Assembly (NCBI GenBank): GCA_964529325.1
Contig: CAZGWH010000003.1
Span: forward strand, 5,119 to 69,118
DNA from: an uncultured bacterium
GTDB lineage: Bacteria > Fidelibacterota > Marinisomatia > SCGC-AAA003-L08 > GCA-2689995
DNA length: 64,000 nt
Direction of reading: 5' to 3'
Below the pieces are notes generated by a model that was not told the origin of the DNA, did no database searches, and was given only the letters and a program-made list of their open reading frames with translations. The position numbers and the translations under genes were made by a program. This document shows, piece after piece, positions 1-16,676 of this stretch. Positions within the stretch are counted from its first letter, which is position 1. Every line of letters begins with the position of its first letter.

Positions 1-2579
1 ATTTACAAGAAAAAGGACAGGTTTTACAGCGATTTAAAAATGGAAAACTCAAAATATTATATATTGCTCCAGAAAGACTTCAACAAAAAACCTTCCAGTT
101 GGAATTGAAACGCTTAATCGAAAGAGGAGTAAATATTAACTATTTTCCTATCGACGAGGCACATTGTATTTCTGAGTGGGGTCATGATTTTAGACCTCCA
201 TATTCACGGTTAAAAGATAGACAACAAGATTTACCTCATATTGATGGAAACCATCCATCCATAATCGCTCTAACTGCCACTGCATCTCAAAAAGTTCAAG
301 AAGATGTGTTGGAACAGCTATCTATGGATAAAGATAAAAATTTAATTCATAAAATTGTTGATAGAAAAGAGTTGAGTTTAGAAGTGATACCGATGCAATA
401 TGAACTCTCAAGCGGTAAATATAAAGTAACTTATCGAAACCCTGACGATAAAAACGGATTTTCAGAACATCATTTTGAAGAAGGTGCTATGCGTCATGAT
501 GTTTTGAAATATGTATTAGATAATATATTACCTCATAGATTTGATTCTTTTGATATTAGCCAAGATGCTGGACTAATCTTTACTATTTATGCAGACCCAA
601 AACCAGCGATTGAAATGGCTGAAAAAACAGTGAAAAAAATTGCTAAAGAAAAGGAAATAAGTGAAGGTTCTGTTAAATATCAAAAATTATCGGAATATAT
701 CCTCCTCGAAGAGTTCAGGTCAGATAAATGTCGTGAAGGTGAAGGTGCAAGATGGTTGTCAGAATATTTAAATAAAAATGGTATAGATAATAAACCATGG
801 TTCTCATCGTTAGGATATCGTAAGGGTCGAACTTCTGCAGATAAAAGAAAACTTGATAAGGCGTGGGAAAAAATAAAAGTCAAAACTCAAGATGAGTATA
901 TTAGTAATAACGTAAATCTTTTAGTTACTACAAAAGGATTTGGTATGGGAATTGATAAGCCAAATATCCGATACATTATACATTTTGGTTTTCCTGACTC
1001 ATTAGAATCATATTTCCAACAGATTGGTAGAGCAGGCAGAGATAGAGAACATTCGCATTGTATTTTACTTTGGGATGCACCTACATCTGATTGCGAAATA
1101 TACCTTAAAGAGAATAAAACTCCCGAATGCTATAAACCAGATGATACAACTGGAAAGATACAATTTAAAGAATGTCCGTATGGTAGAATAAGGAAGTGTG
1201 ATTATGCTAAACAGATTCACTTTATTGAATCAGGTTATCCCACTATTGATGAGTTACAGTTCGCAATTGATTACCTGAAAGAGAAATCTATAAGTCAAAA
1301 AACATTTCCATGGATCCACCTTAAAAAGGATTATATGAAAGATCAAGTTGCAAGTGCTCTTGGTTATAAAGGAATTCATCGCTCTCAAATAAACGAACAA
1401 TTGTTGATTGAAACATTATCCACTCTAAATTATGTTTATGAATTTTCACAAACCTATTTAGAAATATTAATTCATAGAAAAACGACGATGCGAGAAATAT
1501 TAGAATCAACAAACAACGACATTGTTAAGGAGCATATTGAACTACTCGATCATATTTATCCTAAGTTTATTGATTCTCCCCCCAACAATAATTTTAGACC
1601 ATTTGATATTTCTGATTATGTCCAAAAAATCAGAAAAGTATTGAATAAGGAAATTTTAATTGATGAAGTTGTTCAATTCTTTAATATGCTTAATGAAAGA
1701 GATGACATTGAGTTGAAATTTAATTACATGAAAGACTTTGGGTATGAAATAAAACTGAATGAAGAGATGTTGCAAACAGCAATTGATGATGCAGAACATT
1801 TTAAAAAAGTTTCTGATTGGAAAGAATCCCAATATCTTATGTTTGAGAATGTAGTAAAGTATGCAAAACTTGAACCATTTTCTCAAACTGAAGAGCATAC
1901 CAATACCATGTGTCGTCGTTCCCATATAATGACTGTTTTTAGCACCGAAGGAGCAAAAGTAGGTGAAGGAGTTCGGTGTGATTACTGTGATAATTGCGGT
2001 TATCATAATTCATGGGATGAAAATGCAAATGATTTGATTGCAGGATATGACGAACAACAATTTCGAGTAAATGTTAGAGAGTTTTATTCAAAGCAGTCAA
2101 ATAACGGAGAATACATTAAATCTAATATGAGTCATTTCTTTTCAATTGTAGATGAAATGATTAAAGAAAATTACACAATGATGGTAGAAACAATATCGGA
2201 TGCTTGGTTGGAACAAATAGGTGAATCTGAAAATCCCGCAACTAATCTTATGCTGTCTATCGTTCATCACTTAAAAAAGGATAAAATCCAACATTCTAAA
2301 TATTTAAAAAAAGTATTTGAAGTAATAGATGATACCAATCTAACTCAAAATATTATAATAGGGTTATTCAAATCAGCAGAAATTGCCCCAATGGATATTT
2401 ATAGGGAGCAATTTAGAAAGGTAGATTCTAAAAGGAAAATGAAGTTACTTAGAATATTTAGTTCAAATAAGTCAGATGAATTTGAAATAATAGAGACAAC
2501 AATTGGTTTGGAAATTGTTGGAAATCAAAATCGAAAGTTTAAATCAGTCTTAGGAAAAATTGAGAAAATGGAGGTCTAA
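1..2579 (+). CDS. RecQ-family SF2 DNA helicase, atypical (large insertions and an unknown C-terminal domain); 5'-partial
   Basis: The frame is open from the window edge. Upstream of the listed TTG it reads KILYIAPERLQQK (RecQ motif Ib). Then come FPIDEAHCISEWGHDFRPPY (motif II), ALTATAS (III), TTKGFGMGIDKPNIRYIIHF (V), QQIGRAGRD (VI) and a RecQ-type Zn motif, CRRS...CDYCDNC (Cys 605/627/630/633 in ORF numbering). Confidence 0.85.
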   Translation, partial: LQEKGQVLQRFKNGKLKILYIAPERLQQKTFQLELKRLIERGVNINYFPIDEAHCISEWGHDFRPPYSRLKDRQQDLPHIDGNHPSIIALTATASQKVQEDVLEQLSMDKDKNLIHKIVDRKELSLEVIPMQYELSSGKYKVTYRNPDDKNGFSEHHFEEGAMRHDVLKYVLDNILPHRFDSFDISQDAGLIFTIYADPKPAIEMAEKTVKKIAKEKEISEGSVKYQKLSEYILLEEFRSDKCREGEGARWLSEYLNKNGIDNKPWFSSLGYRKGRTSADKRKLDKAWEKIKVKTQDEYISNNVNLLVTTKGFGMGIDKPNIRYIIHFGFPDSLESYFQQIGRAGRDREHSHCILLWDAPTSDCEIYLKENKTPECYKPDDTTGKIQFKECPYGRIRKCDYAKQIHFIESGYPTIDELQFAIDYLKEKSISQKTFPWIHLKKDYMKDQVASALGYKGIHRSQINEQLLIETLSTLNYVYEFSQTYLEILIHRKTTMREILESTNNDIVKEHIELLDHIYPKFIDSPPNNNFRPFDISDYVQKIRKVLNKEILIDEVVQFFNMLNERDDIELKFNYMKDFGYEIKLNEEMLQTAIDDAEHFKKVSDWKESQYLMFENVVKYAKLEPFSQTEEHTNTMCRRSHIMTVFSTEGAKVGEGVRCDYCDNCGYHNSWDENANDLIAGYDEQQFRVNVREFYSKQSNNGEYIKSNMSHFFSIVDEMIKENYTMMVETISDAWLEQIGESENPATNLMLSIVHHLKKDKIQHSKYLKKVFEVIDDTNLTQNIIIGLFKSAEIAPMDIYREQFRKVDSKRKMKLLRIFSSNKSDEFEIIETTIGLEIVGNQNRKFKSVLGKIEKMEV

Positions 2580-3166
2580 TGAACAAGCAGTTTGAAAAAG
2601 TTATAAAAAAAATGGATGAACAGTCGAATAAAGCAATTGAATTACAAAAACATGTTTCGTCTTTATTCACCAAAGTAGAATCAACTCAAGGAGATATTGA
2701 CAAAAAAATAGATAAGGTCAATAAGGACTTAGAAAAAGTATTGGGTGGTTTTGAAGTTGAATCGGAACGAATATTTAAAGATGTTAAATCTGAGTTTGAT
2801 AAATTAAAAACTGATATAAATACTTCATTACAAGATAAGATTAAAGAAATTGGTATTCTTAAAGAAGAATATCAAGAAAATGTATCTAATCTAATTCAAT
2901 CGATTGATAAAAAGTCTAATAAAATTCTTAAAATTTATAATGAATTGGAGGGCATTAAAAAAATACAAAAAGACGCAATAAAAACTTTTGGTGAAATTGC
3001 TGGCAACCAGAAAATGGCAACAGATAAATTCACCAAAGAATCACAAGAATTGTTAACAAATACAGATTTGGGCAATTTGCTACACATTGTTGAGTCATTT
3101 GAATCTCGACTAGTGAAATTGGAAAATTACGCCCACAAACACACATTTGGAGGAACTAAAGTATGA
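2579..3166 (+). CDS. Hypothetical coiled-coil protein (195 aa)
   Basis: Lys/Glu/Asp-rich, heptad-like sequence throughout. The start overlaps the helicase stop (TAATG) and the stop overlaps the next start (ATGA). No family recognised. Confidence 0.6.
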   Translation: MNKQFEKVIKKMDEQSNKAIELQKHVSSLFTKVESTQGDIDKKIDKVNKDLEKVLGGFEVESERIFKDVKSEFDKLKTDINTSLQDKIKEIGILKEEYQENVSNLIQSIDKKSNKILKIYNELEGIKKIQKDAIKTFGEIAGNQKMATDKFTKESQELLTNTDLGNLLHIVESFESRLVKLENYAHKHTFGGTKV

Positions 3167-3429
3167 AAATTGAAAACATGAGAAAAGGTGATTGGAACAA
3201 AACCAAAGCATTCTTTGATATTGAAACAAATGAAGGAATAGTTATAAAAGGATTTAAACTTGTTGAAGGAGCAAGTGGAATGTTCATGAGTAATCCCAGC
3301 CATTATAGTAAAAAAGACGACAAGTGGTTTGATGATGTTTTTATACCAAAAGAATTGAAAGATGAATTGGAAAAAATGGCTATTAAAGAATTTGGTGGGA
3401 AAAATAATAGCCCTGATTATCCATTTTAA
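3163..3429 (+). CDS. SpoVG-fold nucleic-acid-binding protein (88 aa)
   Basis: By eye it aligns with B. subtilis SpoVG: AFFDIETNEGIVIKGFKLVEGASGMFMSNPS against [31 protein letters not shown]. The C-terminal helix is also similar. Confidence 0.6.
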   Translation: MKIENMRKGDWNKTKAFFDIETNEGIVIKGFKLVEGASGMFMSNPSHYSKKDDKWFDDVFIPKELKDELEKMAIKEFGGKNNSPDYPF

Positions 3430-3456
3430 ATTCTATTTAAAAATAAACTAAATAAC

Positions 3457-4365
3457 ATAAAGGGTTCCATTTTTGGTTTAGCCATTGGTGATGCGATAGG
3501 TGCACCTTTAGAGTTTAAACCGCCAGGTAGTTTTAAACCTATTTCAGCAATGCACTCTGGTGGCTATTTTAATTTAAAAGCAGGTGAATTTACCGATGAT
3601 ACTTCTTTGGCATTATGTCTTGCTGAAAGTTTAATAAAATGTAATGGTTTAGATTTGAAAGATAATATGGATATGTATTGGAAGTGGCTTTCTGAAGGAT
3701 ATTTAAGCGTAAATGATAAAGCAATTGGTGTAGGTAAAACAACGATGAGAGCTATATTTAATTATACAAAAACGGGTAATCCTATTTCTAAAATTAAGAA
3801 TAAAATGTCTGCAGGAAATGGATCATTAATGCGACTTGCTCCGGTACCTTTATTTTATTCAAATAATCCAATTAAAGCAATTGAAAAGTCTGGAGAAAGT
3901 TCAAAAACAAACCATCCGTTGCAAATAACAGTTGATGCATGTAGATATTTTGGAGGATTAATTTACGGCGCCACTAATGGAGTTAATAAAGAACTATTAC
4001 TTTCTAAATTATATGCTCCGATTGATGATTATTGGATAATTAACGACCTCCACCCTGAGATAACAGAAATTGCAAACGGATCATTTAAAGAAAAAAAACC
4101 ACCTGAAATTAAGGGTACAGGCTATATTTCAAATTCATTAGAATCGGCATTATGGGCATTTTATAATAGTAATTCGTATGAGGAGGGGATTTTTTTAGCT
4201 GTAAATTTAGGGAATGATGCGGATACCACAGGTGCAATATATGGTCAATTAGCAGGTGCATATTATAGATTTAATGAGATACCGTTGAAATTTAAAAATA
4301 AAATAGCGATGAAAGATTTACTTAATTCTATTGCTGAAAAGTTAAATAGAAAATTAGAAATTTGA
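3457..4365 (+). CDS. ADP-ribosylglycohydrolase family protein (ARH/DraG-like); start codon uncertain
   Basis: Motifs GEFTDDTSLAL, GNGSLMRLAPV and GNDADTTGAIYGQLAGAYY. The conserved N-terminal GLAIGDAIGAPLEF lies upstream of the first ATG (3550), and the only possible starts there are ATT (3430) or ATA (3457). ATA would give MKGSIFGLAIGDA. Confidence 0.85.
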   Translation: MKGSIFGLAIGDAIGAPLEFKPPGSFKPISAMHSGGYFNLKAGEFTDDTSLALCLAESLIKCNGLDLKDNMDMYWKWLSEGYLSVNDKAIGVGKTTMRAIFNYTKTGNPISKIKNKMSAGNGSLMRLAPVPLFYSNNPIKAIEKSGESSKTNHPLQITVDACRYFGGLIYGATNGVNKELLLSKLYAPIDDYWIINDLHPEITEIANGSFKEKKPPEIKGTGYISNSLESALWAFYNSNSYEEGIFLAVNLGNDADTTGAIYGQLAGAYYRFNEIPLKFKNKIAMKDLLNSIAEKLNRKLEI

Positions 4366-4586
4366 AAAGAAAATTATTGAATGGAGATTATAAATCAATT
4401 AATTGGAGAGGTCAAAAAAAATTAATTGACAAAATATTTTTATTTTGCGTTGCTTTTCTTTTATGGGTGGGTGAAAAATTCGGTCTGACTTATAATGAAA
4501 TAAATGTAATTATTTTTGTTATAATTTGGCCTATTATAACAATTATTTTATTTGGCTATTCAATACATTGTTTTATCACGCATTGA
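4362..4586 (+). CDS. Small two-TM membrane protein (74 aa)
   Basis: A basic N-terminus followed by two hydrophobic helices (IFLFCVAFLLWV, INVIIFVIIWPIITIILFGY). The TTG start overlaps the ARH stop (TTGA). Confidence 0.5.
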   Translation: MKRKLLNGDYKSINWRGQKKLIDKIFLFCVAFLLWVGEKFGLTYNEINVIIFVIIWPIITIILFGYSIHCFITH

Positions 4587-5226
4587 CAGTGTTTATAAAT
4601 TATATAAAAAATATGTAGATATAGTAAAAATGACATTTCAAACTCCAGATAAATTAATTAATTATTTTAAAAATATTAACCTAGATAGATTTCATGTTCT
4701 TGATATTTTTGTAGGTGAATTGGATAAAGATGACGCATTGAATAAACATTATATGTGGCTGGCTAATATGGTTTTCAATAATCAATCAGAAGAAATCTCT
4801 AATGAATCACCATTTTTGAAAAGATATCCTTTTAAATCTAAACCCATATCATTAGGTGGTGATTTTGTAAATACTTCTAATTATAAAGGTTATACAGCAA
4901 CATATGTATTAAGTGAAAAAGGAAATTTAATTTTAGAATATTATGGATTCGGGAAATATGATATTACTCAAATACAAATTGACGAAATAAGAGTAGATTT
5001 GAAAGTTGATTTTCCAGATAAAAATTCTGATGGTGTTTCAGATAAGGAAATTGTTGAAATGATTTTAGATGAGATGGGTGGGTATAATAGTGTTCAAAAT
5101 ACTCCAGAGTTGATTCAAGGTGATTTTTGGATGTGTGCAAGAGAATCTATTTATGGTCCAAAAACATATATACCATTTAAAAATAGTGTTATTATTAGTG
5201 ATGAAAAGAAATGGATAATAAAATAA
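4552..5226 (+). CDS. Hypothetical protein, last gene of the operon
   Basis: Long open frame with no recognised motifs. The start is either TTG 4552 (overlapping the previous gene) or ATG 4630 (MTFQTPDK). Confidence 0.55.
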   Translation: MAIQYIVLSRIDSVYKLYKKYVDIVKMTFQTPDKLINYFKNINLDRFHVLDIFVGELDKDDALNKHYMWLANMVFNNQSEEISNESPFLKRYPFKSKPISLGGDFVNTSNYKGYTATYVLSEKGNLILEYYGFGKYDITQIQIDEIRVDLKVDFPDKNSDGVSDKEIVEMILDEMGGYNSVQNTPELIQGDFWMCARESIYGPKTYIPFKNSVIISDEKKWIIK

Positions 5227-5325
5227 TTTTTTGATTTTAGGAACAAATTTTAAGAATATTTTTACTTATAATAACATCATTTCCTTTGTTCAATAAATTA
5301 CAATAAAAAATCAATTAATGAAAGG

Positions 5326-5397
5326 AAGAGGACCGACCGCTAATTGACCGTCCCAGGCCATAGTAAGTAGCATCAGTTAGAAGTATATGGTCCTCTT
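5326..5397. ncRNA. GC-rich 72-nt nested-stem element (candidate small structured RNA or integration-site remnant); strand unknown
   Basis: AAGAGGACC (5326-5334) pairs perfectly with GGTCCTCTT (5389-5397). Inside, CTAATTGA (5340-5347) pairs with TCAGTTAG (5373-5380), 8 bp with one G-U. It forms a local GC island in an AT-rich gap between convergent genes. Confidence 0.3.
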
Positions 5398-5481
5398 ATG
5401 TTTGTTATATATTTTAAAAAGCAATGACAATAATTTATATCAGAATTTCTTTTAATTCTAAATCTTTAATTAATATTTTTT

Positions 5482-6357
5482 CTAAATATTATCTCCTAAT
5501 TCAAATAATTTAACAGCTCCATGTTTTGCTGATAATTCCTTTTGCTTACTTTCAAAAATTAAAATATTATTTTCATTAAATGAGGGCGAGTAATTTGAAA
5601 TAGTTTTCCGCATTGAATTTTCAAAAAAGGGGAAGGCATGAGAAAGGCCACCTCCAATTGAAATTGCATTTGGGTCTATAAAATTAATAACATGAGATAA
5701 GCATTCACCAAGTTTTTCACCGAAGTCATTCCAAACGGATTCTGCACTTTTATTGTGTTGTTTTGCTAATTCATTTAAATCTTTTGGATTAATTATCGTA
5801 TGAAAATATTTAAAAGATAATTTTTCTACACCGCTGATTGAAATGTAGTTTTCCCAATTTTTTTGAGCTATTGGCGATATTCCATATTCACCTGCCATAC
5901 CATTTCCACCAGTAAATAATTGTTCATTAATTATTATTCCAAACCCCAAACCGGTACCCAGCGTCACACCAACACATGTTTTTTTATTAAACTGATGAAA
6001 TTCACCTAAAGCAAATAAATTAGCATCATTTTCAATTAAACAGGGAAGATGTAATTTTTCTTCCATTATTTTTTTTAAATGACAATTTTGTAATAATGTT
6101 AAATTTGGAGTGTTTAGTATTAATCCTTTACTTGATTTTAATGGTCCTGGGCAAGCAAATCCAATACCTTTTATAAAATTATCACCCGCAAGTTTTTTTA
6201 TTTGAGCACTTATGCCATCTAATAGTTCGTCAGTCGTTTTATAATCTGAAATATTATTTTTTGGTGAAATTAATTTTAATTCATATTTTTCATTAAATAA
6301 TGCAGATGAAAAAGTAGTTCCACCAATATCAGTTCCTATAAGATATTTATTTTCCAA
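5482..6357 (-). CDS. ROK-family sugar kinase (glucokinase-like)
   Basis: DIGGTTF, ENDANLFALGE, GTGLGFGII and GMAGEYG motifs. Confidence 0.85.
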   Translation of the reverse strand: MENKYLIGTDIGGTTFSSALFNEKYELKLISPKNNISDYKTTDELLDGISAQIKKLAGDNFIKGIGFACPGPLKSSKGLILNTPNLTLLQNCHLKKIMEEKLHLPCLIENDANLFALGEFHQFNKKTCVGVTLGTGLGFGIIINEQLFTGGNGMAGEYGISPIAQKNWENYISISGVEKLSFKYFHTIINPKDLNELAKQHNKSAESVWNDFGEKLGECLSHVINFIDPNAISIGGGLSHAFPFFENSMRKTISNYSPSFNENNILIFESKQKELSAKHGAVKLFELGDNI

Positions 6358-6475
6358 TTGCTTTAAAATACAATTATTTATTAATTATCAAATATATAAT
6401 TATATTAATAATTCAACATTTGATTAAATCCGTTTCAAAGAAGTAATTTAATACACTTTTTTAAAGGGTATATTA

Positions 6476-6868
6476 ATGAAATTCATATATATAATTCTCA
6501 TTTTATTTACTATAATTGGGTGTACAAATACTACGATTGGTTCAACAGAAGTCCAAGAAATTGATTATGTTGAATTTTCTCAAATAGAAAATTATAATAA
6601 CGGTTCTTGGTTTGAGGTAACAGGTCATATAAAAAATATTAGTACCACACAGACCATACCATCAGCATGGCATATTGAATGTCAATTTTATTCTGATGAA
6701 AGTATGTCATTAAAATTGGGCGGAGAAAATGGAACGGTATGGGTTCCTCTGGAACCTGACCAATCTACAATTTGGACAATTAGGTGGCTCCCCGGAGTAA
6801 ATTCGAATATTAATATTTCTGACTACCCTGATTGGACTTATGGTGATATAAGGGCATATAAAAATTAA
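6476..6868 (+). CDS. Lipoprotein, unknown function
   Basis: Signal peptide with a lipobox-like LFTIIGC. Confidence 0.6.
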   Translation: MKFIYIILILFTIIGCTNTTIGSTEVQEIDYVEFSQIENYNNGSWFEVTGHIKNISTTQTIPSAWHIECQFYSDESMSLKLGGENGTVWVPLEPDQSTIWTIRWLPGVNSNINISDYPDWTYGDIRAYKN

Positions 6869-7218
6869 TGGTACAAGCAATTTTAGCCTATATTGTTATT
6901 TTTTCAACCCTATTTTTGTCTTCGGTAAGTATTTCATTCACCATACTTAAATCCCAGACTAAACCTCCTCAAACATCTAAATTTAGAATATTACAACAGA
7001 AAAGAGTAATAAATGGATTATTAAGAAATTTCAATGAATTATCCTCTTCACATAAATCAATTCAACGAAATTTAGAATTAAAAAAAACAGCATTAGAGTA
7101 TGAAATTCTAACAACTGATTCACTTTTGAATGAAATGGAATTAAACCAAAATAGACTAAACCATCATGAAAAAATATTGAATTCAAATGATAATAAATTA
7201 GCGAAAATGTTAAAATGA
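6868..7218 (+). CDS. Membrane-anchored coiled-coil protein
   Basis: An N-terminal TM helix followed by a polar helical region. Start and stop are coupled to both neighbouring genes. Confidence 0.5.
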   Translation: MVQAILAYIVIFSTLFLSSVSISFTILKSQTKPPQTSKFRILQQKRVINGLLRNFNELSSSHKSIQRNLELKKTALEYEILTTDSLLNEMELNQNRLNHHEKILNSNDNKLAKMLK

Positions 7219-8042
7219 AAAATGTGTTATTATTTTCTATAATATTTCTTTCGGTAAATTTATATTCTCAATGCAACGGGTGTAATAAAAATAATCAGAA
7301 ACTAGATATTTGGGATATTCAATATACATGTAATCAAAAATTAATTTCTTATGATGAATGTAATAATATTACGAATGTATTAACCGAATCTATTTCAATT
7401 GCTAAAACAGGCGAAGAGTTATTAAATGTTGGTTTGCAAAAATGGAATAATAATGAACTTACATTTTTTGCTTTATTTGATAATCGATATAAATTAAACC
7501 TAGAACAATTTACTAAATTTAAAAATTTAAACCATTTACTTTTAAAAGGAATTGAAATAATTGATAATAATTTTAAGAAAAAAATTATATTAAAAGGGGA
7601 ATATATATTACTTATTCGGAATCAACTTTCAATTCCCTTATCTCAACTGGAATTTTCAAATAATTTAAAATATATTTCTTTAGATGAAAATCATTTAACA
7701 GGTGAGATTACTGAACAATTTTTTAATAATCCAGAACTCATTAATTTATCAATTGAATATAATGAATTATCTGGCCATTTACCTGTAGATTTAAGTGGTG
7801 CAAAAAAATTGAAATTTTTTACACTAAATAACAATATAATAACTGGCTCTGTACCGAAGTCAATTTGCGAATTAGCAGATTTAGAAGTACTTCATTTGCA
7901 ATATAATAAATTTGATAAATTGCCAGAATGTATATGTGAAATGAAAAAAAGGTCTATTGATATTGAATTATATGGAAATAAATTCTGTGAAGAAATTCCA
8001 AAGTGCATTGAAGAGTCGATTGGGTTTCAAGAATGTTTTTAA
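7215..8042 (+). CDS. Secreted leucine-rich-repeat protein (plant-specific-type LRR) with Cys-rich caps
   Basis: Signal peptide plus repeats of the form LxxLxLxxNxLtGxIP (NHLTGEITEQF, NELSGHLPVDL, NNIITGSVPKSI). The ends are Cys-rich (QCNGCN at the N-terminus, NKFCEEIPKCIEES..ECF at the C-terminus). Confidence 0.8.
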   Translation: MKNVLLFSIIFLSVNLYSQCNGCNKNNQKLDIWDIQYTCNQKLISYDECNNITNVLTESISIAKTGEELLNVGLQKWNNNELTFFALFDNRYKLNLEQFTKFKNLNHLLLKGIEIIDNNFKKKIILKGEYILLIRNQLSIPLSQLEFSNNLKYISLDENHLTGEITEQFFNNPELINLSIEYNELSGHLPVDLSGAKKLKFFTLNNNIITGSVPKSICELADLEVLHLQYNKFDKLPECICEMKKRSIDIELYGNKFCEEIPKCIEESIGFQECF

Positions 8043-8094
8043 ATTATAACTTTTATAATTCATCGCTCTAACTATTAGTTATAACTATTTTAAA

Positions 8095-8787
8095 ATGAGT
8101 TTAATTCACATTTATAAAGATATAGCACAATTCAAAAAATCATTTGATATTATAACAAATAAAATTCACTATCCAATCGCAATTTTTTTATGTTCATTAA
8201 TATCTAAAACTAAGGCGACTCCAAATTTTATAACCTTTATTAGTATTATTTTTGAACTTACTGCAATCAGTTTAATATGTATTAATTTTATTCATTATAG
8301 ATATGTTATTGTGATACTATTTCAACTGGGGTGGATATTTGATTTAATGGATGGAATGTTAGCTAGATATAAAAAACAGGGTTCATACCATTCGACAAAC
8401 CCTTCAATTAAGGGTTATTATTTAGATGCAGTTTCTGATCATGTTTTAAAGTTTATGGCAATCGGGGCATTGTCATTTCAACTTTCTAATTCATTTTCTT
8501 GGGGATGGAAATTAAGTTTATTATTTATAGTAATCCATGCTATTACTCAAACTGAATATACAATTCGCAATTTAATTTTAGCTAAAACACAACAAAATAA
8601 ACCTGAATTAAAAAAACGAACAGGATCTGTTATAGAATCCACCGTTTTATTATTTAATAATATATATTTATTTTATATTATATTTCTTCCTATAGGTCGT
8701 ATTGACTTATTATTTATTTGTTTTGGTATTGGTGAAATTATTTTATTTTTAAAAAGAAGTTTGAAGTTTTGGTTTACAGCAAATTGA
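8095..8787 (+). CDS. CDP-alcohol phosphatidyltransferase family protein
   Basis: DLMDGMLAR...GYYLDAVSD matches Dx2DGx2AR...Gx3Dx3D. The protein is polytopic. Confidence 0.75.
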   Translation: MSLIHIYKDIAQFKKSFDIITNKIHYPIAIFLCSLISKTKATPNFITFISIIFELTAISLICINFIHYRYVIVILFQLGWIFDLMDGMLARYKKQGSYHSTNPSIKGYYLDAVSDHVLKFMAIGALSFQLSNSFSWGWKLSLLFIVIHAITQTEYTIRNLILAKTQQNKPELKKRTGSVIESTVLLFNNIYLFYIIFLPIGRIDLLFICFGIGEIILFLKRSLKFWFTAN

Positions 8788-8810
8788 TTCATTTTGAAAA
8801 ATAATGAATA

Positions 8811-9812
8811 ATGGGTAGACAATTTAATGACCGTCCTATTTTGATAGTGGGATTACCTCGGTCTGGTACAACATGGCAATTTAATGTAATGAGTCAATCT
8901 ACTGCATTATATCCAATATTTGAACCAGATAATCGAAAAATAAATCCATTTTCACATTATTACTTAAAAGATAATCACCGTTTTCCTGTTGATGGTGGGA
9001 ATAATGAATTTTTTATGAATTATTTATGGAAAAATATTTTTACAGGTAAGTGGGAAGAGGGATATATTCATCGCGTTTTAAAATATTTATATTTAAAAAA
9101 TAATGATTCCATGGAAAATAATATTCAAAAATATTGTGGTTATAAAATTCCTAAAAATGACATGATTCAGTATTTGGAATATAATATTAATCAAAGTTCC
9201 TTACCGAATAAATACATAGTTAAATTATTTGAATATTTTTCTAAAATTAATATAAAAGGAAAAATTCCACTAATAAAATCGGTTCATTGTATTCGCCAGT
9301 TAAAATGGATTCAGAAAAATTATAATCCTAAAATTGTCATAATTACTCGAAAATTACCAAATTTAATTGCAAGTTTTCTAAGATTAAAAATGCCTGATTC
9401 ATTAAGAGGAATTTCAGCTTCACCTCTATTTAAAAAAAAAGTGGATATAATATTTGAAAATGACAATAAACAGAATGGTTTTATTTTTCATTCTATGATT
9501 ATTCAGGCGTGTGAGCTACTCACAACCCTTTTAAGCTATCATAATTTAAAAAATGACTCTGTGCTTATCAATCATGAAAAAGCATGTGAAAACCCCATTT
9601 TCCATTATAAAAATCTATTCAATGATTTAAATTTAACATGGAGCAACTCAATTGAAAAATATATCGAAGGAGAAAATATAAGCGGTGCTGGATTTGTGCC
9701 TCAACGGAGGGCTGAAAAAGAACAGATTCGATATAAAGATCAACTTTCACATTCTCAATTAAATTTAATAAAAGAATATGCTGAAGTGTATAATCTTGAA
9801 AGTTATTTATAA
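8811..9812 (+). CDS. Sulfotransferase family protein
   Basis: N-terminal PAPS-binding loop GLPRSGTTW, and a later ITRKLPNLIAS region resembling the 3'-phosphate-binding motif. Confidence 0.75.
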   Translation: MGRQFNDRPILIVGLPRSGTTWQFNVMSQSTALYPIFEPDNRKINPFSHYYLKDNHRFPVDGGNNEFFMNYLWKNIFTGKWEEGYIHRVLKYLYLKNNDSMENNIQKYCGYKIPKNDMIQYLEYNINQSSLPNKYIVKLFEYFSKINIKGKIPLIKSVHCIRQLKWIQKNYNPKIVIITRKLPNLIASFLRLKMPDSLRGISASPLFKKKVDIIFENDNKQNGFIFHSMIIQACELLTTLLSYHNLKNDSVLINHEKACENPIFHYKNLFNDLNLTWSNSIEKYIEGENISGAGFVPQRRAEKEQIRYKDQLSHSQLNLIKEYAEVYNLESYL

Positions 9813-9819
9813 ACAATAG

Positions 9820-11064
9820 ATGATAAATACATCTAATTCAAGAAAATCAATTTTATTTATTACTCCATATTTACCATCTGAATTTTCAGGGCATGCAGGT
9901 GCACAACTCATATTTAGAAATATAATTATATTATCTAAAAATTATAATATTTTTTTAATTTCGTTTATTAATTCGAATGAGTTAATGTATCTTGATATTT
10001 TAAAAAAGCATGGAATAAATATTTCATATATTATTTTTAATCGAAATTCAAAAAAACTTTCCACAAATATCATTAATTTTATCAAATATATTCCTGCATT
10101 ATTACAATCATTTTTACTTTTTAAACCATTTTTTTTAACAAAATATAAAAATAATAACTTTAAAAAATTAGTTGATAAAACCATCGCGGTGAATAAAATA
10201 GATATCATTCAAATTGAGTATAATATTATGTATCATTATTTACCTCAAAATAATAAAATAAAATCACTTCTCATCCTACATGATGTATCCACTAAATTAT
10301 ATGAAAGAAGTTACCAGCAAAATAAAAATATATTTACAAAAGCATTTAGATATATAGATTATCTAAGGTGGAAATCGGTAGAATTCAATATAATTAATAA
10401 ATTTGATAAAGTTATTTCATTAACTAAAGAAGATAAGCACTATATTTATAATAAAGTTAATACTTCAATCTCAATCGTTCCACCTCAAATTCAATTTGAA
10501 GAATGTGCTGTTAATAATAGAAAAAAAATGAATATAATTTTCATTGGCTCTTATAATAGAGAGCCTAATATTAACGCTTTAGAAATATTACTTTTTAATA
10601 TTTTTCCAAAAATTCAAGGTGAATTCCCTGATTTAACTTTAACAATTGTTGGAAAATATTTACCAACATACTTACTAAAACATATTAATAAGAATGATAA
10701 TATAATTTATAAGGGATATGTAGAAAACATAAATAATGAAATTTCAAATGCTCTCCTCATGATTGCACCCATTTTTATAGGTGCAGGATTAAAAATGAAA
10801 ATTCCACATGTATTATCTTGTGGTGTTCCTGTAATTACAACAACGGTAGGGGCTGAAGGAATTGAAATAAATGAAAGTGATGGGATGTGGATTGAAAATG
10901 ATATATTGAAAATAATATCATTAGCTATTAATTTATTGAAAGATAAAAACAGTCTAATTCAAAAAGGTATCTTGGGGAAAGAAAAAGTAAATGAATTATT
11001 TTCATCTAAAGTAATTAATGAAAAATTAATTTCAATATATGACGAATTATTTAATATTTCATGA
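9820..11064 (+). CDS. Glycosyltransferase family 4 (GT-B)
   Basis: GT-B layout with a C-terminal GAGLKMKIPHVLSCGVPVITTTVGAEGIE. Confidence 0.8.
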   Translation: MINTSNSRKSILFITPYLPSEFSGHAGAQLIFRNIIILSKNYNIFLISFINSNELMYLDILKKHGINISYIIFNRNSKKLSTNIINFIKYIPALLQSFLLFKPFFLTKYKNNNFKKLVDKTIAVNKIDIIQIEYNIMYHYLPQNNKIKSLLILHDVSTKLYERSYQQNKNIFTKAFRYIDYLRWKSVEFNIINKFDKVISLTKEDKHYIYNKVNTSISIVPPQIQFEECAVNNRKKMNIIFIGSYNREPNINALEILLFNIFPKIQGEFPDLTLTIVGKYLPTYLLKHINKNDNIIYKGYVENINNEISNALLMIAPIFIGAGLKMKIPHVLSCGVPVITTTVGAEGIEINESDGMWIENDILKIISLAINLLKDKNSLIQKGILGKEKVNELFSSKVINEKLISIYDELFNIS

Positions 11065-12563
11065 AAAATTCAACAAAAATAGCAAAAGAAGCAGGAATAA
11101 ATATTGCAGGTGAAATGTATGGAGGGATTGTTCGATTTACATTTATTGGTATTCTTGCTCGTTTAGTTGGACCTGAATTTTTAGGGATTTATTCTATTGG
11201 GAATGCAATTACGCGTATTTTTGCTGTATTAGGTATTGCAGGATTAGATAAAGGAATATTACGATATGTAAGCTATAATCGAGGTGAAAATGAAAAAATA
11301 ATAATTAAAAAATGGATTAATGTAGCTCTTAAATATGCACTATTATTTGGATTTATTGTATTCATTCTACAATTTGTCTTATCATCAAAAATTACTCTTT
11401 TATTTTATAATGGAAATATTGATATAAAAAATATAATCCAATTATTTGCGTTCATTTTACCTTTTTCAATATTAAGTGGAATTGCTGCTCATAGTACTCA
11501 AGGATTTAAAATTTTAAAATATAAGGTAATAACAATTCAAGTTATTCAACCAACAGCATTACTAATTATCCTTTTTACATTATATTATTTTAATTATACT
11601 TTATTTGATCAAATAACATATCCTTTAATTATTGCAGAAATTATTGGGTTTACCCTAATGTTTATTTTTTTACAACGCATAATGGTAATAAAACCAAAAG
11701 ATGTAATAAATCAATCGTTAGATAGTGAAATTATTAAATTCTCATTTCCGCTTATGTTAGTCGGATTATTAGGAATGATGATGCATTGGATTGATATTTT
11801 AATGTTAGGGTATTATTTAAATCCAGAAGAAGTAGGTATTTATCAGCCTGCCGTACGAACAACAGGAATTATTCGATTATTTTTAGTATCTTTTACAGGT
11901 ATATTCACTCCGATGATGTCAGAGCTAATTGCCAATAATTTAATAAAAGAAATGAAAAATATTTATCAATTAACGGCAAGATGGATGCTTACTCTCTCAT
12001 TGCCATTTTTTGTAATAGCTCTCACTCGTTCCGAGCAAATTATGAATTTATTTGGAAATCAATTTATTATAGGAGCAAATATTATTGTTATTTTAATGGT
12101 TGGGATGCTTTTTCAAGCAATTGGAAATCCCGCGGGTTCTACTTTGGTTATGGCAGGTAAAACAAAATTAGTTCTTTTCAATACTATTTTTGTTGCTTTT
12201 TTAAATATTTGTATCAATATTTATTTAATTCCAAAACTAGGTTTAATTGGAGCAGCATGGGGGACAGCTATATCTTTAATTATTCTTTGTATTGTACGAA
12301 TTATACAAATTTGGATATATTATAAAATACAACCATTTGGTTTTAATATATTAAAAGCTATCTTAAGTGGGATTATTTTATATGTAATGTCAATATTTTT
12401 ATCTACATATTTAAATCAAATCAATTATTTCTTAAATTTATGTATAACATTTAGCATATTAATTATTATTTATATGCTTTTATTATTTATATTTAAATTA
12501 GAAAGAGAAGATATAGAAGTGATTGATTCAATAAAATTAAAATTTAAAGGTTTACAAAGTTAA
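11061..12563 (+). CDS. Polysaccharide biosynthesis protein / Wzx-type (MOP superfamily) flippase
   Basis: About 14 predicted TM helices, typical length and position for this family. Confidence 0.8.
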   Translation: MKNSTKIAKEAGINIAGEMYGGIVRFTFIGILARLVGPEFLGIYSIGNAITRIFAVLGIAGLDKGILRYVSYNRGENEKIIIKKWINVALKYALLFGFIVFILQFVLSSKITLLFYNGNIDIKNIIQLFAFILPFSILSGIAAHSTQGFKILKYKVITIQVIQPTALLIILFTLYYFNYTLFDQITYPLIIAEIIGFTLMFIFLQRIMVIKPKDVINQSLDSEIIKFSFPLMLVGLLGMMMHWIDILMLGYYLNPEEVGIYQPAVRTTGIIRLFLVSFTGIFTPMMSELIANNLIKEMKNIYQLTARWMLTLSLPFFVIALTRSEQIMNLFGNQFIIGANIIVILMVGMLFQAIGNPAGSTLVMAGKTKLVLFNTIFVAFLNICINIYLIPKLGLIGAAWGTAISLIILCIVRIIQIWIYYKIQPFGFNILKAILSGIILYVMSIFLSTYLNQINYFLNLCITFSILIIIYMLLLFIFKLEREDIEVIDSIKLKFKGLQS

Positions 12564-14878
12564 TGTCGAATTATCAAAAAATTATTATATTTATTGCAAT
12601 CATGCTTTTTTCTCTCATATTTACTTTTAAAGATGTAATTAGTGGAAATAATGTATTCGCAACTCCAGACTCACAATCTGCATCATCTGTAGGAAAAGGA
12701 ATGGAAACATACAAAGCTGAAAATGGAGAATACCCAAAATGGAATCCTTGGATATTTTCTGGAGTTCCATCTACTCATTCACTACAACATGTATCTCGAT
12801 TCTATCCACCAAATTTTATTTTAAAACACCTAAACCAAATAGGAATGCCTGGATTTATAAATTATTTATTACATTTTATATTTGCAGGTTTTGGATGTTT
12901 CTTAATATTATATAATCGGAAAATAAATTATTGGGCTTCAGTTTATTCAGGGTTATCATTTGCTCTCATGCCATATTTAATCACTATGATTGTTCATGGA
13001 CATGGTTCTCAAATGATGACTTCTGCTTATATTCCATGGATTTTTTATGCATTAGATCGACTTAGAGAAAATATCAATATTAAAAATACCTCAATTCTAT
13101 CCATATTAATTGGATTCCAATTATTAAGAGGTCATGTTCAAATTGCTTACTTTACCTGGCTGATTATCGGTGTTTATATTTTATTTTACTTTATTACAGG
13201 ATTATTAAATAAAAATCAAAAAGTATCATCTGATTTTTATTTTTACTCATTCATAGCGTTAATGATCGGTTTTGGTACTGCTGTTCAATTATATTACCCT
13301 GCCCATTCTTATTCTAGTTTTTCCATTAGAGGGGGTAGCGGGGGAGGTACTGGCTTTGACTATGCAACTGCATGGTCATTCAGTTTAGGAGAAATGTTAA
13401 CCTTTTTTAATCCTAATTATTACGGTTTTGGAAGTGCTACTTATTGGGGGAATATGCCTTTCACAGATTATCCTAACTATATGGGAATACTAACAATTAC
13501 ATTTATGCTTATTGCAATATTTAATATTCGAAATACAAAAATAGGAATACTATTTTTTATTTGGTCTGCATCTCTATTATTATCATTTGGACACAATACA
13601 CCAATTTATAAATTATTTTATAATTACTTCCCATTTTTCAATAAATTTAGAGTTCCTGCAATGTTTTTAATTCTTTTGCAGTTTAGTACTGTAATATTAG
13701 CAGGGTTAGGTTTAGATTATTTATTGAAAAATGTATCAAAATGGAAAAACTATTTAAAATATATTTCCATCCCAATTTTAATTATAATTATTTCATTTTT
13801 TACAAAAAATTCCTTCTTATCTAGTTCAGAGAAGTCTCATAATATATTAGATAAAATTAGATTAGAAATGATTAATGATGGAGCATTAAATGTATTAGGT
13901 ATATTTTTAATTGCTTTAATTTTATTTTTCTTATTCTATAAAAAATTAATAAATGAAAAATTAATAGGAATTGGAATTTTAACTCTATTAATTATTGATT
14001 TATATCCTATAAACAATGAAATTATTCATCCAAGTCAAAAATTTACTCAGTCTCAATTAATGATGTCTTCGAGAAATTATAAAAAATTACAAAAAAATGA
14101 TGATATTATTAATTATTTACAAAATGATAAATCTAATTTTAGAATTCTTCCATTACCCCCATTGCTAAACGATAATCGGTGGGCTGGATTTCAAATTGAA
14201 AATGTAGGGGGATACCATCCTGCAAAATTGCAAAATTATCAAAAAATGATGACAGATGTAGGTTTTAATTCACCTGGTTTTCTACACATGTTAAATGTAA
14301 AATATTTAATCAGCTTAAGTCCATTAAATCATCCTATGTTTACAGAGGTATTCATTGGAAAGTTAAATCATCAAGGAAATTTAAAAAATACATTTATATA
14401 TTTAAATAAAATGAGTACAAATAATATTATATTCCCTCACTTTATTGATAAATATACAACACATACTGAACTGATAAATAATTTGAAAAAACCAACATAT
14501 TCACCAATAAATACAGTATATATTAATAATAGTGATGATATAATTAATGGTGAAAATGGAATTGGTATATTACAGGAATATTCAAAAAGTGCAGATTTAA
14601 TCTCAGCTACTATAAATATGGATAATGCAGGTCTAATTGTATTTAGTGAAATTTATTATCCAAATGGGTGGGAGTGCTCTGTAAATAATAAAATAGTAGA
14701 TATTATTGAAGTTAATGGATTATTAAGAGGAATTTATTTAGATAAAGGAATAAATAAAATTACAATGATATTTAAGCCAAATGATTTAAAAATGAGTAGA
14801 ATTATTTCATTATGTTCATTTTTCATAATAGGGCTTGGGTTTTTCTTTGGCTTAATTAAATCTAAAAAATATGATTAA
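12563..14878 (+). CDS. Large polytopic membrane protein, YfhO-like glycosyltransferase (GT-C-like)
   Basis: A multi-TM N-terminal half, a soluble C-terminal region and a final TM helix. The family assignment rests on architecture and context only. Confidence 0.5.
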   Translation: MSNYQKIIIFIAIMLFSLIFTFKDVISGNNVFATPDSQSASSVGKGMETYKAENGEYPKWNPWIFSGVPSTHSLQHVSRFYPPNFILKHLNQIGMPGFINYLLHFIFAGFGCFLILYNRKINYWASVYSGLSFALMPYLITMIVHGHGSQMMTSAYIPWIFYALDRLRENINIKNTSILSILIGFQLLRGHVQIAYFTWLIIGVYILFYFITGLLNKNQKVSSDFYFYSFIALMIGFGTAVQLYYPAHSYSSFSIRGGSGGGTGFDYATAWSFSLGEMLTFFNPNYYGFGSATYWGNMPFTDYPNYMGILTITFMLIAIFNIRNTKIGILFFIWSASLLLSFGHNTPIYKLFYNYFPFFNKFRVPAMFLILLQFSTVILAGLGLDYLLKNVSKWKNYLKYISIPILIIIISFFTKNSFLSSSEKSHNILDKIRLEMINDGALNVLGIFLIALILFFLFYKKLINEKLIGIGILTLLIIDLYPINNEIIHPSQKFTQSQLMMSSRNYKKLQKNDDIINYLQNDKSNFRILPLPPLLNDNRWAGFQIENVGGYHPAKLQNYQKMMTDVGFNSPGFLHMLNVKYLISLSPLNHPMFTEVFIGKLNHQGNLKNTFIYLNKMSTNNIIFPHFIDKYTTHTELINNLKKPTYSPINTVYINNSDDIINGENGIGILQEYSKSADLISATINMDNAGLIVFSEIYYPNGWECSVNNKIVDIIEVNGLLRGIYLDKGINKITMIFKPNDLKMSRIISLCSFFIIGLGFFFGLIKSKKYD

Positions 14879-16028
14879 AGAAAATTATAAAATACTCATA
14901 GCCTTCTTAGGTTTAATTATTATATTAATTACATTTAGTTTAAACCATTATCTCATTTCTGAAATTAGAAATGATGCGAGAACTCAAATTGAACAAATTA
15001 CAAAAATTTATTCCGAAAAAGTAAATTCAAGCAATGTTGAAGAATTAACTGTGATTTTAGAAGTATTACTACCTTCAATTACTTTTCCATTAATTATTAC
15101 GACAAATGATGAAATTTATGCAGTACGAAATATTAATATCAATACTCCTCCAAATACACCCGTTTATAAAAAACAAGTTACAAAAATTATTAAAAGAATG
15201 GACTCTTATTTTACTCCAATTCCAATAAAATGGAACTCTAATTCTTTTAGCTTGATTCATTTTGGTGATCCCGACCTAATTCAAAAAATCCAATGGATAC
15301 CGTATATTCAAATAGGAATGTTAGCTATATTTATTTCTTTAATTTTATTTTCGTTACATTTAATAGGTGACCATGAAAAAGACAAACTATGGGTTGGGAT
15401 GACACGGGAGACAGCACATCAGTTAGGAACTCCAATCTCATCATTATTAGGATGGATTGATTTATTGAAAGATGAAAAAATAGATTCTAAAATAATTAAT
15501 TCAATGAATTTAGATATTCAAAGACTCAAAGAAATAGCAGATAGATTTTATAAAATAGGCTCTAAGCCTAAATTTGTTGAAATTGATTTAATGGATCTAT
15601 CGAATGAAATTTGCGAATATATAAAAAATAGAATTCCTTCAAAAACAGAAATAAAATTAAATGTAGTAGGTGATCATGTCCATATTATGGGTGCTAAAAC
15701 ATTAATTGGATGGGCTATCGAAAATTTATTAAAAAACTCCATTGATGCCTGTAAAGATAAAAAAGGTGATATTAAAATTAATTTAAGTATAGAAAACCAT
15801 ATTGCAATACTAGATGTAATTGATAATGGTATGGGTATAAAAAAATCAGAGTGGAATAATATTTTTTCTGCTGGATTTAGTAATAAAAATAAAGGATGGG
15901 GTTTAGGATTAAGTTTAACAAAGAGAATTATAGAAAATATTCATCTGGGCAAAATAGGAGTTCTAAAATCTCAAGATGGCGAAACTATAATTAGACTAAA
16001 CCTACCATTAAATAATTTAATAAAATAA
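14871..16028 (+). CDS. Sensor histidine kinase (no response regulator in the window)
   Basis: Two TM helices, H-box ETAHQLGTPISSL and ATPase motifs DNGMGI and GWGLGLSL. Confidence 0.85.
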   Translation: MIKENYKILIAFLGLIIILITFSLNHYLISEIRNDARTQIEQITKIYSEKVNSSNVEELTVILEVLLPSITFPLIITTNDEIYAVRNININTPPNTPVYKKQVTKIIKRMDSYFTPIPIKWNSNSFSLIHFGDPDLIQKIQWIPYIQIGMLAIFISLILFSLHLIGDHEKDKLWVGMTRETAHQLGTPISSLLGWIDLLKDEKIDSKIINSMNLDIQRLKEIADRFYKIGSKPKFVEIDLMDLSNEICEYIKNRIPSKTEIKLNVVGDHVHIMGAKTLIGWAIENLLKNSIDACKDKKGDIKINLSIENHIAILDVIDNGMGIKKSEWNNIFSAGFSNKNKGWGLGLSLTKRIIENIHLGKIGVLKSQDGETIIRLNLPLNNLIK

Positions 16029-16033
16029 TATCT

Positions 16034-16669
16034 ATGACAAATATTGAATATCTATTATTATGTTTTTCAACTTTATTCAGTTTGGTTAATCCATTGGGAT
16101 TTCTACCTATTTTTCTCGCACTAACTGATAAATACGATAAACCTCAACGAATTATCGTACTGAAAAATGGAATTATTACGGCAATGTTTACATTGATAAT
16201 CTTTTCAATTCTCGGTACTGCAATATTTACTTTTTTCGGAATTACAATTGAAGCATTTCAAATAATGGGTGGAATTATTTTCTTTAAAACAGGTCAACGG
16301 ATGCTCGAAGGGAATATTGGAAAAACAAGAACTTCCCCCGTAGAAGAGGAGGAAAGCATAGAGAAAGATAATATTGGCATTAGTCCACTTGGAATACCGA
16401 TTATTGCTGGCCCAGGTGCTATAACAGCTACGATGGTATTAACAGGAAAAACAGGGAGTTATGAACATCTATTTATTTTAATATCATCCATTATTTTCGT
16501 TTTAATTGTAACTTACCTAACTTTTTTATGGGGAGAGACATTAATTAATAAATTAGGGCAAACTGGATCGAAAATTATACAAAGGATAATGGGGTTATTA
16601 TTAATGGTAATTGCTATTCAATTTATTATTACTGGCTCTGAAACTGTATTATATCGCATTATACATTAA
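16034..16669 (+). CDS. MarC family (UPF0056) membrane protein
   Basis: NPLGFLPIFLALT signature; about 6 TM helices. Confidence 0.8.
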   Translation: MTNIEYLLLCFSTLFSLVNPLGFLPIFLALTDKYDKPQRIIVLKNGIITAMFTLIIFSILGTAIFTFFGITIEAFQIMGGIIFFKTGQRMLEGNIGKTRTSPVEEEESIEKDNIGISPLGIPIIAGPGAITATMVLTGKTGSYEHLFILISSIIFVLIVTYLTFLWGETLINKLGQTGSKIIQRIMGLLLMVIAIQFIITGSETVLYRIIH

Positions 16670-16676
16670 TAAATAT

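Follow-up and report, generated by a model that had tools for sequence, protein, structure and literature searches.

DISARM, BREX and Druantia-type cassettes each combine a large superfamily 2 (SF2) helicase with a module of the S-adenosylmethionine (SAM)-methyltransferase fold and with small accessory genes, and are found in defence islands. RecQ-like helicases are also part of the Dpd 7-deazaguanine system (DpdF) and of PsyrTA (PsyrT). METTL17/Rsm22, a mitochondrial small-subunit assembly factor, has a SAM-methyltransferase fold and an iron-sulphur (Fe-S) cluster; METTL17 binds RNA and its methyltransferase activity is doubtful. In UG25, a class 1 UG/Abi enzyme of the DRT type known from a defence context, an N-terminal methyltransferase is fused to a reverse transcriptase (RT), and this methylase-RT is accompanied by a cluster of DUF1848 proteins (Mestre et al. 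2022, PMC9226505). The latter association was the sole statement on DUF1848 found in the literature searched. The locus described here occupies positions 1-5226 of a 64,000-nucleotide (nt) stretch of contig CAZGWH010000003.1 (assembly GCA_964529325.1; the whole stretch is referred to below as the window) from an uncultured bacterium of the Marinimicrobia (SAR406 / Neomarinimicrobiota). With moderate confidence, it is read as the right part of a defence island particular to this strain, 10 kb or more in length and reaching from the end of a CRISPR array to a conserved flank with a ROK kinase gene. This island would be a mosaic of separate modules, among them an anti-phage or anti-mobile-element cassette composed of genes for a DUF1848 protein, a ~1,400-amino-acid (aa) fusion helicase, a coiled-coil protein with a C-terminal HxHxH motif and a SpoVG-like protein.

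The parent contig of the window was found by an exact-protein match to the coiled-coil protein and corresponds to JGI 3300007512 Ga0105016_1000234 (99.9 kb; L001), a window position being the contig position minus 5010. An earlier note, made from the window sequence, had described 1-5226 as a six-gene operon. The six co-directional open reading frames (ORFs) on the + strand and the overlaps TAATG (2577-2581), ATGA (3163-3166) and TTGA (4362-4365) proved exact in the ORF listing. However, the first ORF is truncated by the window edge, and the co-directional string extends at least 5 kb further upstream with three more genes, so that it comprises at least nine genes beginning beside the CRISPR array. 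Leftward from the helicase the order is DUF1848 (311 aa), a CARF protein, a metallophosphoesterase and the array end. Since overlap is the usual arrangement in this genome (of 50 co-directional junctions in the window, 22 overlap and a further 17 are spaced by 0-15 nt), a start/stop overlap alone does not mark a unit.

The comparison of neighbourhoods covered the homologue loci, five loci from 185,579 species genomes (all that were present there, across unrelated phyla) and a tblastn search of the nine proteins against every locus. It yielded 11 independent loci: L001, L005, L007, L008, L009, L010, L011, L013, L014, L015 and L025. In all of them the order DUF1848, fusion helicase, coiled-coil gene (~195-209 aa) was found, and the SpoVG-like gene was present in nine, being missing from the most divergent L009 and L025. 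The 1-nt overlap between the helicase and coiled-coil genes and the 4-nt ATGA-type overlap between the coiled-coil and SpoVG-like genes are conserved across most loci, and they are kept while helicase identity drops to 38 % (L009); L025 is more distant still, with 33 % identity, and is known from the helicase C-terminal region only. Unlike overlaps within one genome, such conservation of junctions across loci is real evidence of coupling. When all ORFs lying within 5 kb of the cassettes were compared with one another, no further shared gene emerged.

By the same tblastn search the genes for the ADP-ribosylglycohydrolase (ARH), the peptide with two transmembrane (TM) segments, the orphan, the CARF protein and the metallophosphoesterase were in none of the ten other cassette loci. 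Locus L013, from a Neomarinimicrobiota metagenome-assembled genome (MAG), has a helicase 94 % and a coiled-coil protein 90 % identical to those of the window, yet it lacks these five genes; its SpoVG-like gene is followed by a 542-aa gene of no known family, a PLD-domain protein, DUF6508 and a WYL regulator. Very probably the cassette genes form a unit and the block of six is composite. The earlier note had joined all six genes into a single module coupling the helicase to reversible ADP-ribosylation, which the absence of ARH, TM peptide and orphan from the ten other loci contradicts: elsewhere these three occur only apart from the rest, whereas helicase, coiled-coil and SpoVG-like genes do belong together, with DUF1848 outside the window as their partner. 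A single overlap-linked string here contains at least three unrelated modules, and the case serves as a warning to annotators that the limits of a functional system cannot be read from start/stop overlaps and shared direction in streamlined genomes.

The NIOZ-UU74 Neomarinimicrobiota MAG has the cassette twice, in divergent form: L013 (JACNLC010000060.1) and L014 (JACNLC010000030.1). Over the N-terminal domain their helicases are 94 % and 63 % identical, respectively, to that of the window strain, and both contigs end at one and the same position within DUF1848. In L007 a 535-aa gene of no known family sits between DUF1848 and the helicase.

The full helicase (1,412 aa) is a fusion of two parts, a methyltransferase-fold domain resembling Rsm22/METTL17 and a RecQ-family helicase. 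Its N-terminal 554 aa lie outside the window and comprise the Rsm22/METTL17-like domain and the Walker A motif, and the part inside the window starts just before motif II and contains two family-specific insertions, a RecQ-type zinc motif (CRR...CxxCxxC) and a C-terminal domain. The Pfam scan of the latter part gave DEAD, Helicase_C and a weak RecQ_Zn_bind match (18.6, below the 25 required); the calls of a RecQ-family helicase, a SpoVG-like protein and an ARH made in the earlier note were all upheld by Pfam. The full protein passed the NCBIfam family model TIGR00614 recQ_fam (272.6 bits, cutoff 219.8) and failed the housekeeping RecQ equivalogs TIGR01389 and NF008279 (299.1 against 640.2 and 220.7 against 1015). 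No RQC or HRDC match was given by Pfam in the helicase, and relative to housekeeping RecQ it carries as extras the two large insertions and a 460-aa N-terminal domain. Walker A, DEAH, motifs III, V and VI and the zinc motif are at least 95 % conserved among 31 homologues. The family comprises 29 further full-length clusters (30 with that of the window) of 1,349-1,416 aa and 38-63 % identity, beneath which generic RecQ-type matches follow; the C-terminal 492 aa found 8 matches among 1.84 billion representatives.

The model of the N-terminal 460 aa (pLDDT 80) was matched over its whole length to METTL17/Rsm22 by Foldseek. The top six matches all belonged to METTL17/Rsm22 (E 8e-11 to 1e-9), the best being 8om2_c (E 8e-11, TM-score ~0.5), with 440-450 aligned columns at 13-16 % identity. 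Precomputed matches to the Pfam family Rsm22 (PF09243) exist for several homologues, and the N-terminus of the window strain itself had none at E <= 0.1; the sequence search of the Protein Data Bank (PDB) with the profile of this domain gave nothing meaningful. A SAM-binding-type D-x-G-x3-G-T motif and four cysteines (279, 289, 292 and 383) are invariant in the helicase N-terminus. In contrast to METTL17/Rsm22, this domain is bacterial, fused to a helicase and located in a defence island, with no sign of ribosome contact.

Among PADLOC models the full helicase was matched best by DpdF (E 1.2e-85) and PsyrT (E 1.4e-74), in both cases over the core only. It scored below the DpdF equivalog NF041063 (147.9 against 550) and no Dpd partner was seen among the neighbours scanned; the PsyrT model likewise covers the helicase core only and none of eight neighbouring proteins matched PsyrA. 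What sets the cassette family apart from both is its Rsm22-like N-terminus together with its two insertions and its C-terminal domain. Weak PADLOC matches of DrmA, DruE and BrxH fell on the Helicase_C region. Compared with DISARM, BREX and Druantia, the cassette has no PLD, DUF1998, PglZ, PglX or other signature gene, its methyltransferase fold is Rsm22-like and not that of an N6 or C5 DNA methylase, and DUF1848, coiled-coil and SpoVG-like genes are its own. This rare cassette, whose function is putative, can be grouped with the helicase-centred cassettes of defence islands. The combination matched no named system in the PADLOC, NCBIfam, PHROGs and Pfam scans of the nine proteins, in line with the earlier note, which had not recognised it as one, and no description of it was found in the literature searched.

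The DUF1848 protein, encoded immediately upstream of the helicase, gave 330.3 bits with PF08902 (gathering threshold 30.5) and belongs to a large family, in which at least ~8,000 clusters formed at 90 % identity were matched, typically at ~50 % identity. Its model (pLDDT 91) is TIM-barrel-like. Seven cysteines are invariant (206, 222, 248, 250, 262, 266 and 269), and the last three form a C-terminal CX3CX2C motif with a weak local match to the rSAM_PA0069 model (E 0.008). No Pfam Radical_SAM match was obtained for this protein and the PDB sequence search gave nothing meaningful; radical-SAM chemistry, suggested by the cysteine motif, is unproven. In PADLOC the protein of the window strain was matched solely by the UG25 accessory model, 'RTasDUF1848' (E 1.3e-47). 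The likeness to UG25 is one of partner logic, as in both cases DUF1848 stands beside an N-terminal methyltransferase fused to a nucleic-acid enzyme. The engine of UG25 is a reverse transcriptase, whereas that of the cassette is a RecQ helicase with no PADLOC match to RT/UG models, and coiled-coil and SpoVG genes are undescribed for UG25. One ordinary DUF1848 locus, from Caloramator, has DnaJ and DUF697 neighbours, with Cas2 and an RT-primase 4 kb off, and was uninformative.

The coiled-coil protein is encoded directly 3' of the helicase in all 11 loci and has 195 aa in nine of them (197 aa in L009 and 209 aa in L025). It ends in a conserved C-terminal motif, R-x2-KLE-x-H-x-H-x-H-x-(F/L)-GG-x-K. 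Profile searches with it gave weak matches of the coiled-coil type, in PADLOC for example to ZorA tails (E >= 8e-5). The SpoVG-like protein passed PF04026 (37.0 bits, gathering threshold 29.6), scored below the septation regulator equivalog (25 against 108) and had no match in PADLOC. Downstream of the SpoVG-like gene in L005 (15054-19869, Ignavibacteriaceae) come two short ORFs with weak Radical_SAM matches, possibly a disrupted radical-SAM gene, and then a gene whose 1,257-aa product has an SPL (spore-photoproduct-lyase-like) domain.

Flanking genes change from one cassette locus to the next, and in most loci examined they are of the defence type: PglZ/BrxL and SNF2 in L010, McrBC and BrxA/B/C in L011 (Caldithrix), PLD+SNF2, Holliday-type endonucleases and the SPL-domain giant in L005, UvrD/PDDEXK, WYL and HIRAN in L007, MmeI-type restriction-modification (R-M), SLFN/Fic and DUF4007 in L008, MmeI-type R-M in L015, and DUF697 and CHAT in L014. 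The cassette is mobile, under purifying selection and embedded in defence islands.

In the window strain the defence context lies upstream, where the earlier note had proposed to look for an integrase or other island genes. The CRISPR array end, the CARF gene and a PDC-S10 gene were found there, which supports a defence context; no integrase was present within 10 kb of the cassette loci examined. The array end occupies positions 1-153 of L001, ~5 kb left of the window start, and 1-155 of L002, so that two independent assemblies break inside the array. The 36-nt repeat is GTCTAAACTCTCTCCGCGTTTTGAGCGGATTAAGAC, with spacers of 37-38 nt and a degenerate last repeat; the exact search of metagenome contigs for this repeat gave 0 matches, and no cas gene was seen on the contigs, which end within the array. 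The metallophosphoesterase and CARF genes span L001 570-2415. The former protein is an end-to-end match to the PADLOC candidate PDC-S10 (E 1.6e-65). The latter, a CARF5/NE0113 protein (Cas_NE0113) of 403 aa, passes TIGR02584 (94.5 against 80.65) and matches PADLOC CARF5 (E 9.9e-44); its gene lies 1.05 kb downstream of the array end and its stop overlaps the DUF1848 start. The two genes may serve the adjoining CRISPR locus, possibly one of type III, as an ancillary module related to cyclic oligoadenylates.

The right edge of the island was defined with a relative, L026, which is colinear with window 5482-16669 at 83-93 % aa identity. At the DNA level the two are ~95 % identical from the stop codon of the ROK kinase gene through a hairpin to ~5319, where the similarity ends, and in place of the block L026 carries a 394-aa beta-helix-like gene. 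Since the similarity stops at ~5319, the block is a variable island with its right edge there. This relative, which keeps the right-hand synteny but has no block, supports the view that the block was horizontally acquired and is variably present.

Three modules can be proposed for the island: the PDC-S10 metallophosphoesterase with the CARF5/NE0113 protein beside the array, outside the window; the mobile cassette; and ARH, the small two-TM protein and the 198-aa protein, which would be add-ons adjoining the cassette in this strain alone. A role of the cassette in defence, by guilt by association, is moderately well supported. If so, the RecQ motor might load onto invading or replicating nucleic acid and translocate along it, the METTL17-like domain and a DUF1848 Fe-S enzyme might carry out SAM-dependent chemistry on this nucleic acid, either modification or radical-type damage, and the coiled-coil and SpoVG-like proteins might act as scaffold and as single-strand binder or sensor. 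The specific SAM/Fe-S chemistry is a tentative and rather doubtful part of this scheme. A still more speculative extension, unlikely as it stands, is that DUF1848 with a motor-tethered methyltransferase fold is a portable module for SAM / Fe-S chemistry on foreign nucleic acid, used in at least two engines (the UG25 RT and the RecQ helicase), and that the cassette works against phages by a new mechanism, in which the translocating helicase guides a radical or methyl transfer that marks or damages invading DNA or RNA, with coiled-coil and SpoVG-like proteins as sensor or adaptor. A defence function would give a gene combination without described counterpart, in which a METTL17/Rsm22-like domain on a RecQ motor acts with a DUF1848 Fe-S/TIM-barrel enzyme and a SpoVG-fold protein. 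It would also give the first functional handle for the orphan family DUF1848, through two independent pairings with methyltransferase-fused nucleic-acid enzymes.

Several points weigh against the assignment of the cassette to defence and against the mosaic. The argument for defence, drawn from gene neighbourhoods, is wholly one of guilt by association. No nuclease or other obvious effector is evident in the cassette, and PADLOC-DB 2.0.0 (2023) recognises no cassette system, the helicase matching generic RecQ-like models such as DpdF and PsyrT. By analogy with METTL17, the METTL17-like domain may bind nucleic acid instead of methylating it. In Foldseek the DUF1848 model gave weak generic TIM barrels from the PDB (TM-score 0.2-0.35), and the 50 best matches listed included no radical-SAM structure. 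Every locus comes from metagenomes, and some of the contigs have little length. Finally, ARH abuts the SpoVG-like gene in frame with zero spacing in this strain, and a local functional link between them is conceivable.

The cassette could alternatively serve accessory maintenance of nucleic acids, either in DNA repair and recombination (RecQ together with an SPL-like Fe-S enzyme) or in RNA and ribosome quality control (the METTL17-like domain together with an RNA-binding SpoVG protein). RecQ family membership, the SpoVG fold, the fold shared with a ribosome small-subunit assembly factor, the local resemblance of CX3CX2C to PA0069/SplB-type radical-SAM proteins and the SPL-domain protein near the cassette in L005 are all in keeping with such a role. 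A maintenance gene set is nevertheless hard to reconcile with the extremely patchy distribution of the cassette, its absence from the same site in a close relative, the two divergent copies in one MAG, and neighbours that are mostly of the defence type and change from locus to locus. Maintenance was accordingly judged quite unlikely, and defence remains the preferred function.

The ARH gene, the first of the strain-specific genes, encodes a full-length ARH fold. With a start given upstream of its first ATG, the protein matched PF03747 at 227.4 bits (threshold 26.2; E 3.9e-67) over positions 1-285 of the 287 in the profile, and the metal- and substrate-binding motifs TDDT, GNGSLMR and DADTTGA are intact. 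Its best NCBIfam match was Tri1, followed by DraG, and neither equivalog was reached (237 against 490 and 136 against 337 bits). It differs from Tri1 and DraG in having no nearby Tre1- or DraT-like transferase, type VI secretion system (T6SS) or nitrogenase genes, and in having no canonical start codon. In the Pfam, NCBIfam, PADLOC and PHROGs scans no ADP-ribosyltransferase was detectable in the nine proteins. The orphan and the TM peptide were considered as the missing transferase and rejected, as no profile supported either and the orphan homologues have no ARH neighbours. By analogy with Tri1, the ARH most likely acts alone, stripping ADP-ribose marks set by a transferase of a phage or competitor.

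The ARH frame runs straight on, in frame, from the stop TAA (3427-3429) of the SpoVG-like gene, with no ATG, GTG or TTG ahead of the conserved N-terminus; the motif GLAIGDAIGAPLEF (3475-3516) lies upstream of the first ATG (3550), and the sole candidate starts are ATT 3430 and ATA 3457. Residue 10 of a jumbo-phage ARH (40 % identical) aligns to codon 12 counted from 3430, hence the gene begins essentially on the codon after the SpoVG stop. The ARH sequence is identical in L001-L003, which are different assemblies, and 99.5 % identical (one residue different) in L004. Over 3427-3549 the four assemblies agree fully as far as each of them extends. Because the arrangement recurs in four assemblies from different samples, the missing start is not a sequencing error. 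Non-canonical initiation, termination-reinitiation, a read-through fusion and loss of the start codon are the possibilities, and for Marinimicrobia the gene is a modest example on which non-canonical initiation or termination-reinitiation could be studied. Recoding of TGA or TAA, suspected from the low GC content and the in-frame SpoVG-TAA-ARH arrangement, was rejected, as SpoVG homologues share the same '...PF' C-terminal end and the other block genes stop normally at TAA or TGA.

This junction is also an argument for treating the packed genes, six in the window and really nine, as one operon-level system, in which the helicase would sense nucleic acid, ARH would reverse ADP-ribosylation and the TM peptide would be the effector. 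ARH looks translationally dependent on SpoVG, the arrangement is reproduced in four independent assemblies, packing is tight and no terminator-like site was found between 2500 and 5226. Packing has little force here, where overlap or abutment is the rule and even the CARF gene overlaps DUF1848 although it is absent from the other loci. With no transferase detectable, with ARH, TM peptide and orphan missing from ten other loci (the 94 %-identical one included), and with orphan homologues that stand without ARH or helicase, a single system is largely refuted by the co-occurrence data and was considered very improbable.

In the composite block the two-TM ORF is probably a real small membrane protein, judging from its sequence: its length was reached in 2 of 5000 shuffles of 4341-4640 and hydropathy windows support two segments. 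It has no family, no profile match (Pfam, NCBIfam, PADLOC, PHROGs) and no homologue in the other loci. Like its homologues, all of which begin with MTFQ or MTYQ, the orphan has its start at ATG 4630 (giving 198 aa) rather than at TTG 4552, and it does not overlap the TM ORF. It matched no known family, with just two PHROG matches (E > 0.07). Its homologues form four clusters of 55-67 % identity, found in the contexts RmuC/PDDEXK/RT/PIF1, CHAT/trypsin and MerR/VWA/integrase and never with ARH or helicase.

In two loci (L021 7522-8693 and a JGI 3300072015 contig) the orphan homologue is preceded by a gene for a 159-191-aa protein with overlapping stop and start codons, which hints at a separate two-gene module. 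The L021 copy of this upstream gene resembles a lipoprotein, and the window has the 74-aa two-TM ORF in the same position. A promoter-like sequence, TTGACA-18 nt-AAAAAT (10 of 12 matches), at 4583-4612, just upstream of ATG 4630, is consistent with the orphan as a unit of its own; promoter-like sites in the region are no commoner than in shuffled sequence.

The notion that the block serves replication or recombination in a prophage, a satellite or an integrative element draws on an ARH closest to those of jumbo phages (PHROG 6572, E 2.5e-68; 39-40 % identity), a match of the helicase to PHROG 33220 and an integrase near one orphan homologue, but it is extremely unlikely, as no relative of the helicase N-terminal domain or of the orphan was found in 2.9 million IMG/VR viral contigs and no integrase, capsid, terminase or replication initiator was present within 10 kb of the cassette loci examined.

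The features of the block and of its right flank are collected in Table 1.

Table 1. Features at the left end of the window (positions in the window)
Feature	Position	Strand	Remark
Fusion helicase, last 858 codons (frame from base 3) of a 1,412-aa protein	1-2579	+	Cut by window edge
Coiled-coil-like helical protein, 195 aa	2579-3166	+	Third gene of the conserved cassette
SpoVG-like protein, 88 aa	3163-3429	+	Fourth gene, main cassette branch
ADP-ribosylglycohydrolase (ARH fold), ~311 codons	3430-4365	+	Strain-specific cargo outside the cassette
Two-TM ORF, 74 codons	4362-4586	+	Hydrophobic segments at ~residues 25-43 and 45-68
Orphan, 198 aa, very small family without known domain	4630-5226	+	Independent cargo
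Non-coding tail, island-specific	5227-5318		L026 alignment ends at ~5319
Long GC-rich hairpin, conserved ROK-side flank	5326-5400		Probable terminator between convergent genes; marks island boundary
ROK kinase, convergent	5482-6357	-	Adjoins the gap right of the block

The ROK kinase gene does converge on the block, and no other non-coding gap in the left half of the window is as long as the one between them (5227-5481, 255 nt), the runner-up having 172 nt; both statements of the earlier note were accurate. Its remark that the block is less AT-extreme was correct for the mean (GC 0.299 against 0.267 in the rest of the window), but several other window genes reach 0.31-0.38, and the difference is weak and non-diagnostic. 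The hairpin, which stands out in an AT-rich spacer, folds on the + strand at -27 kcal/mol (z = -3.3; z -1.15 on the - strand) and is conserved with 3 substitutions in L026 (~10950-11030), although the proteins of that relative are only 83-93 % identical. It is probably a terminator between the convergent genes, with a small RNA or an integration target as alternatives. The region 5200-5500 gave no Rfam match at E <= 1, the whole window gave nothing in Rfam at the gathering threshold, and no tRNA or tmRNA genes were found in the window.

To the right of the ROK kinase gene, window 8095-17435 holds a polysaccharide/cell-envelope cluster with a CDP-alcohol phosphatidyltransferase, glycosyltransferases, a Polysacc_synt flippase and a YfhO-like protein. 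This cluster is colinear in L026 at 87-93 % identity.

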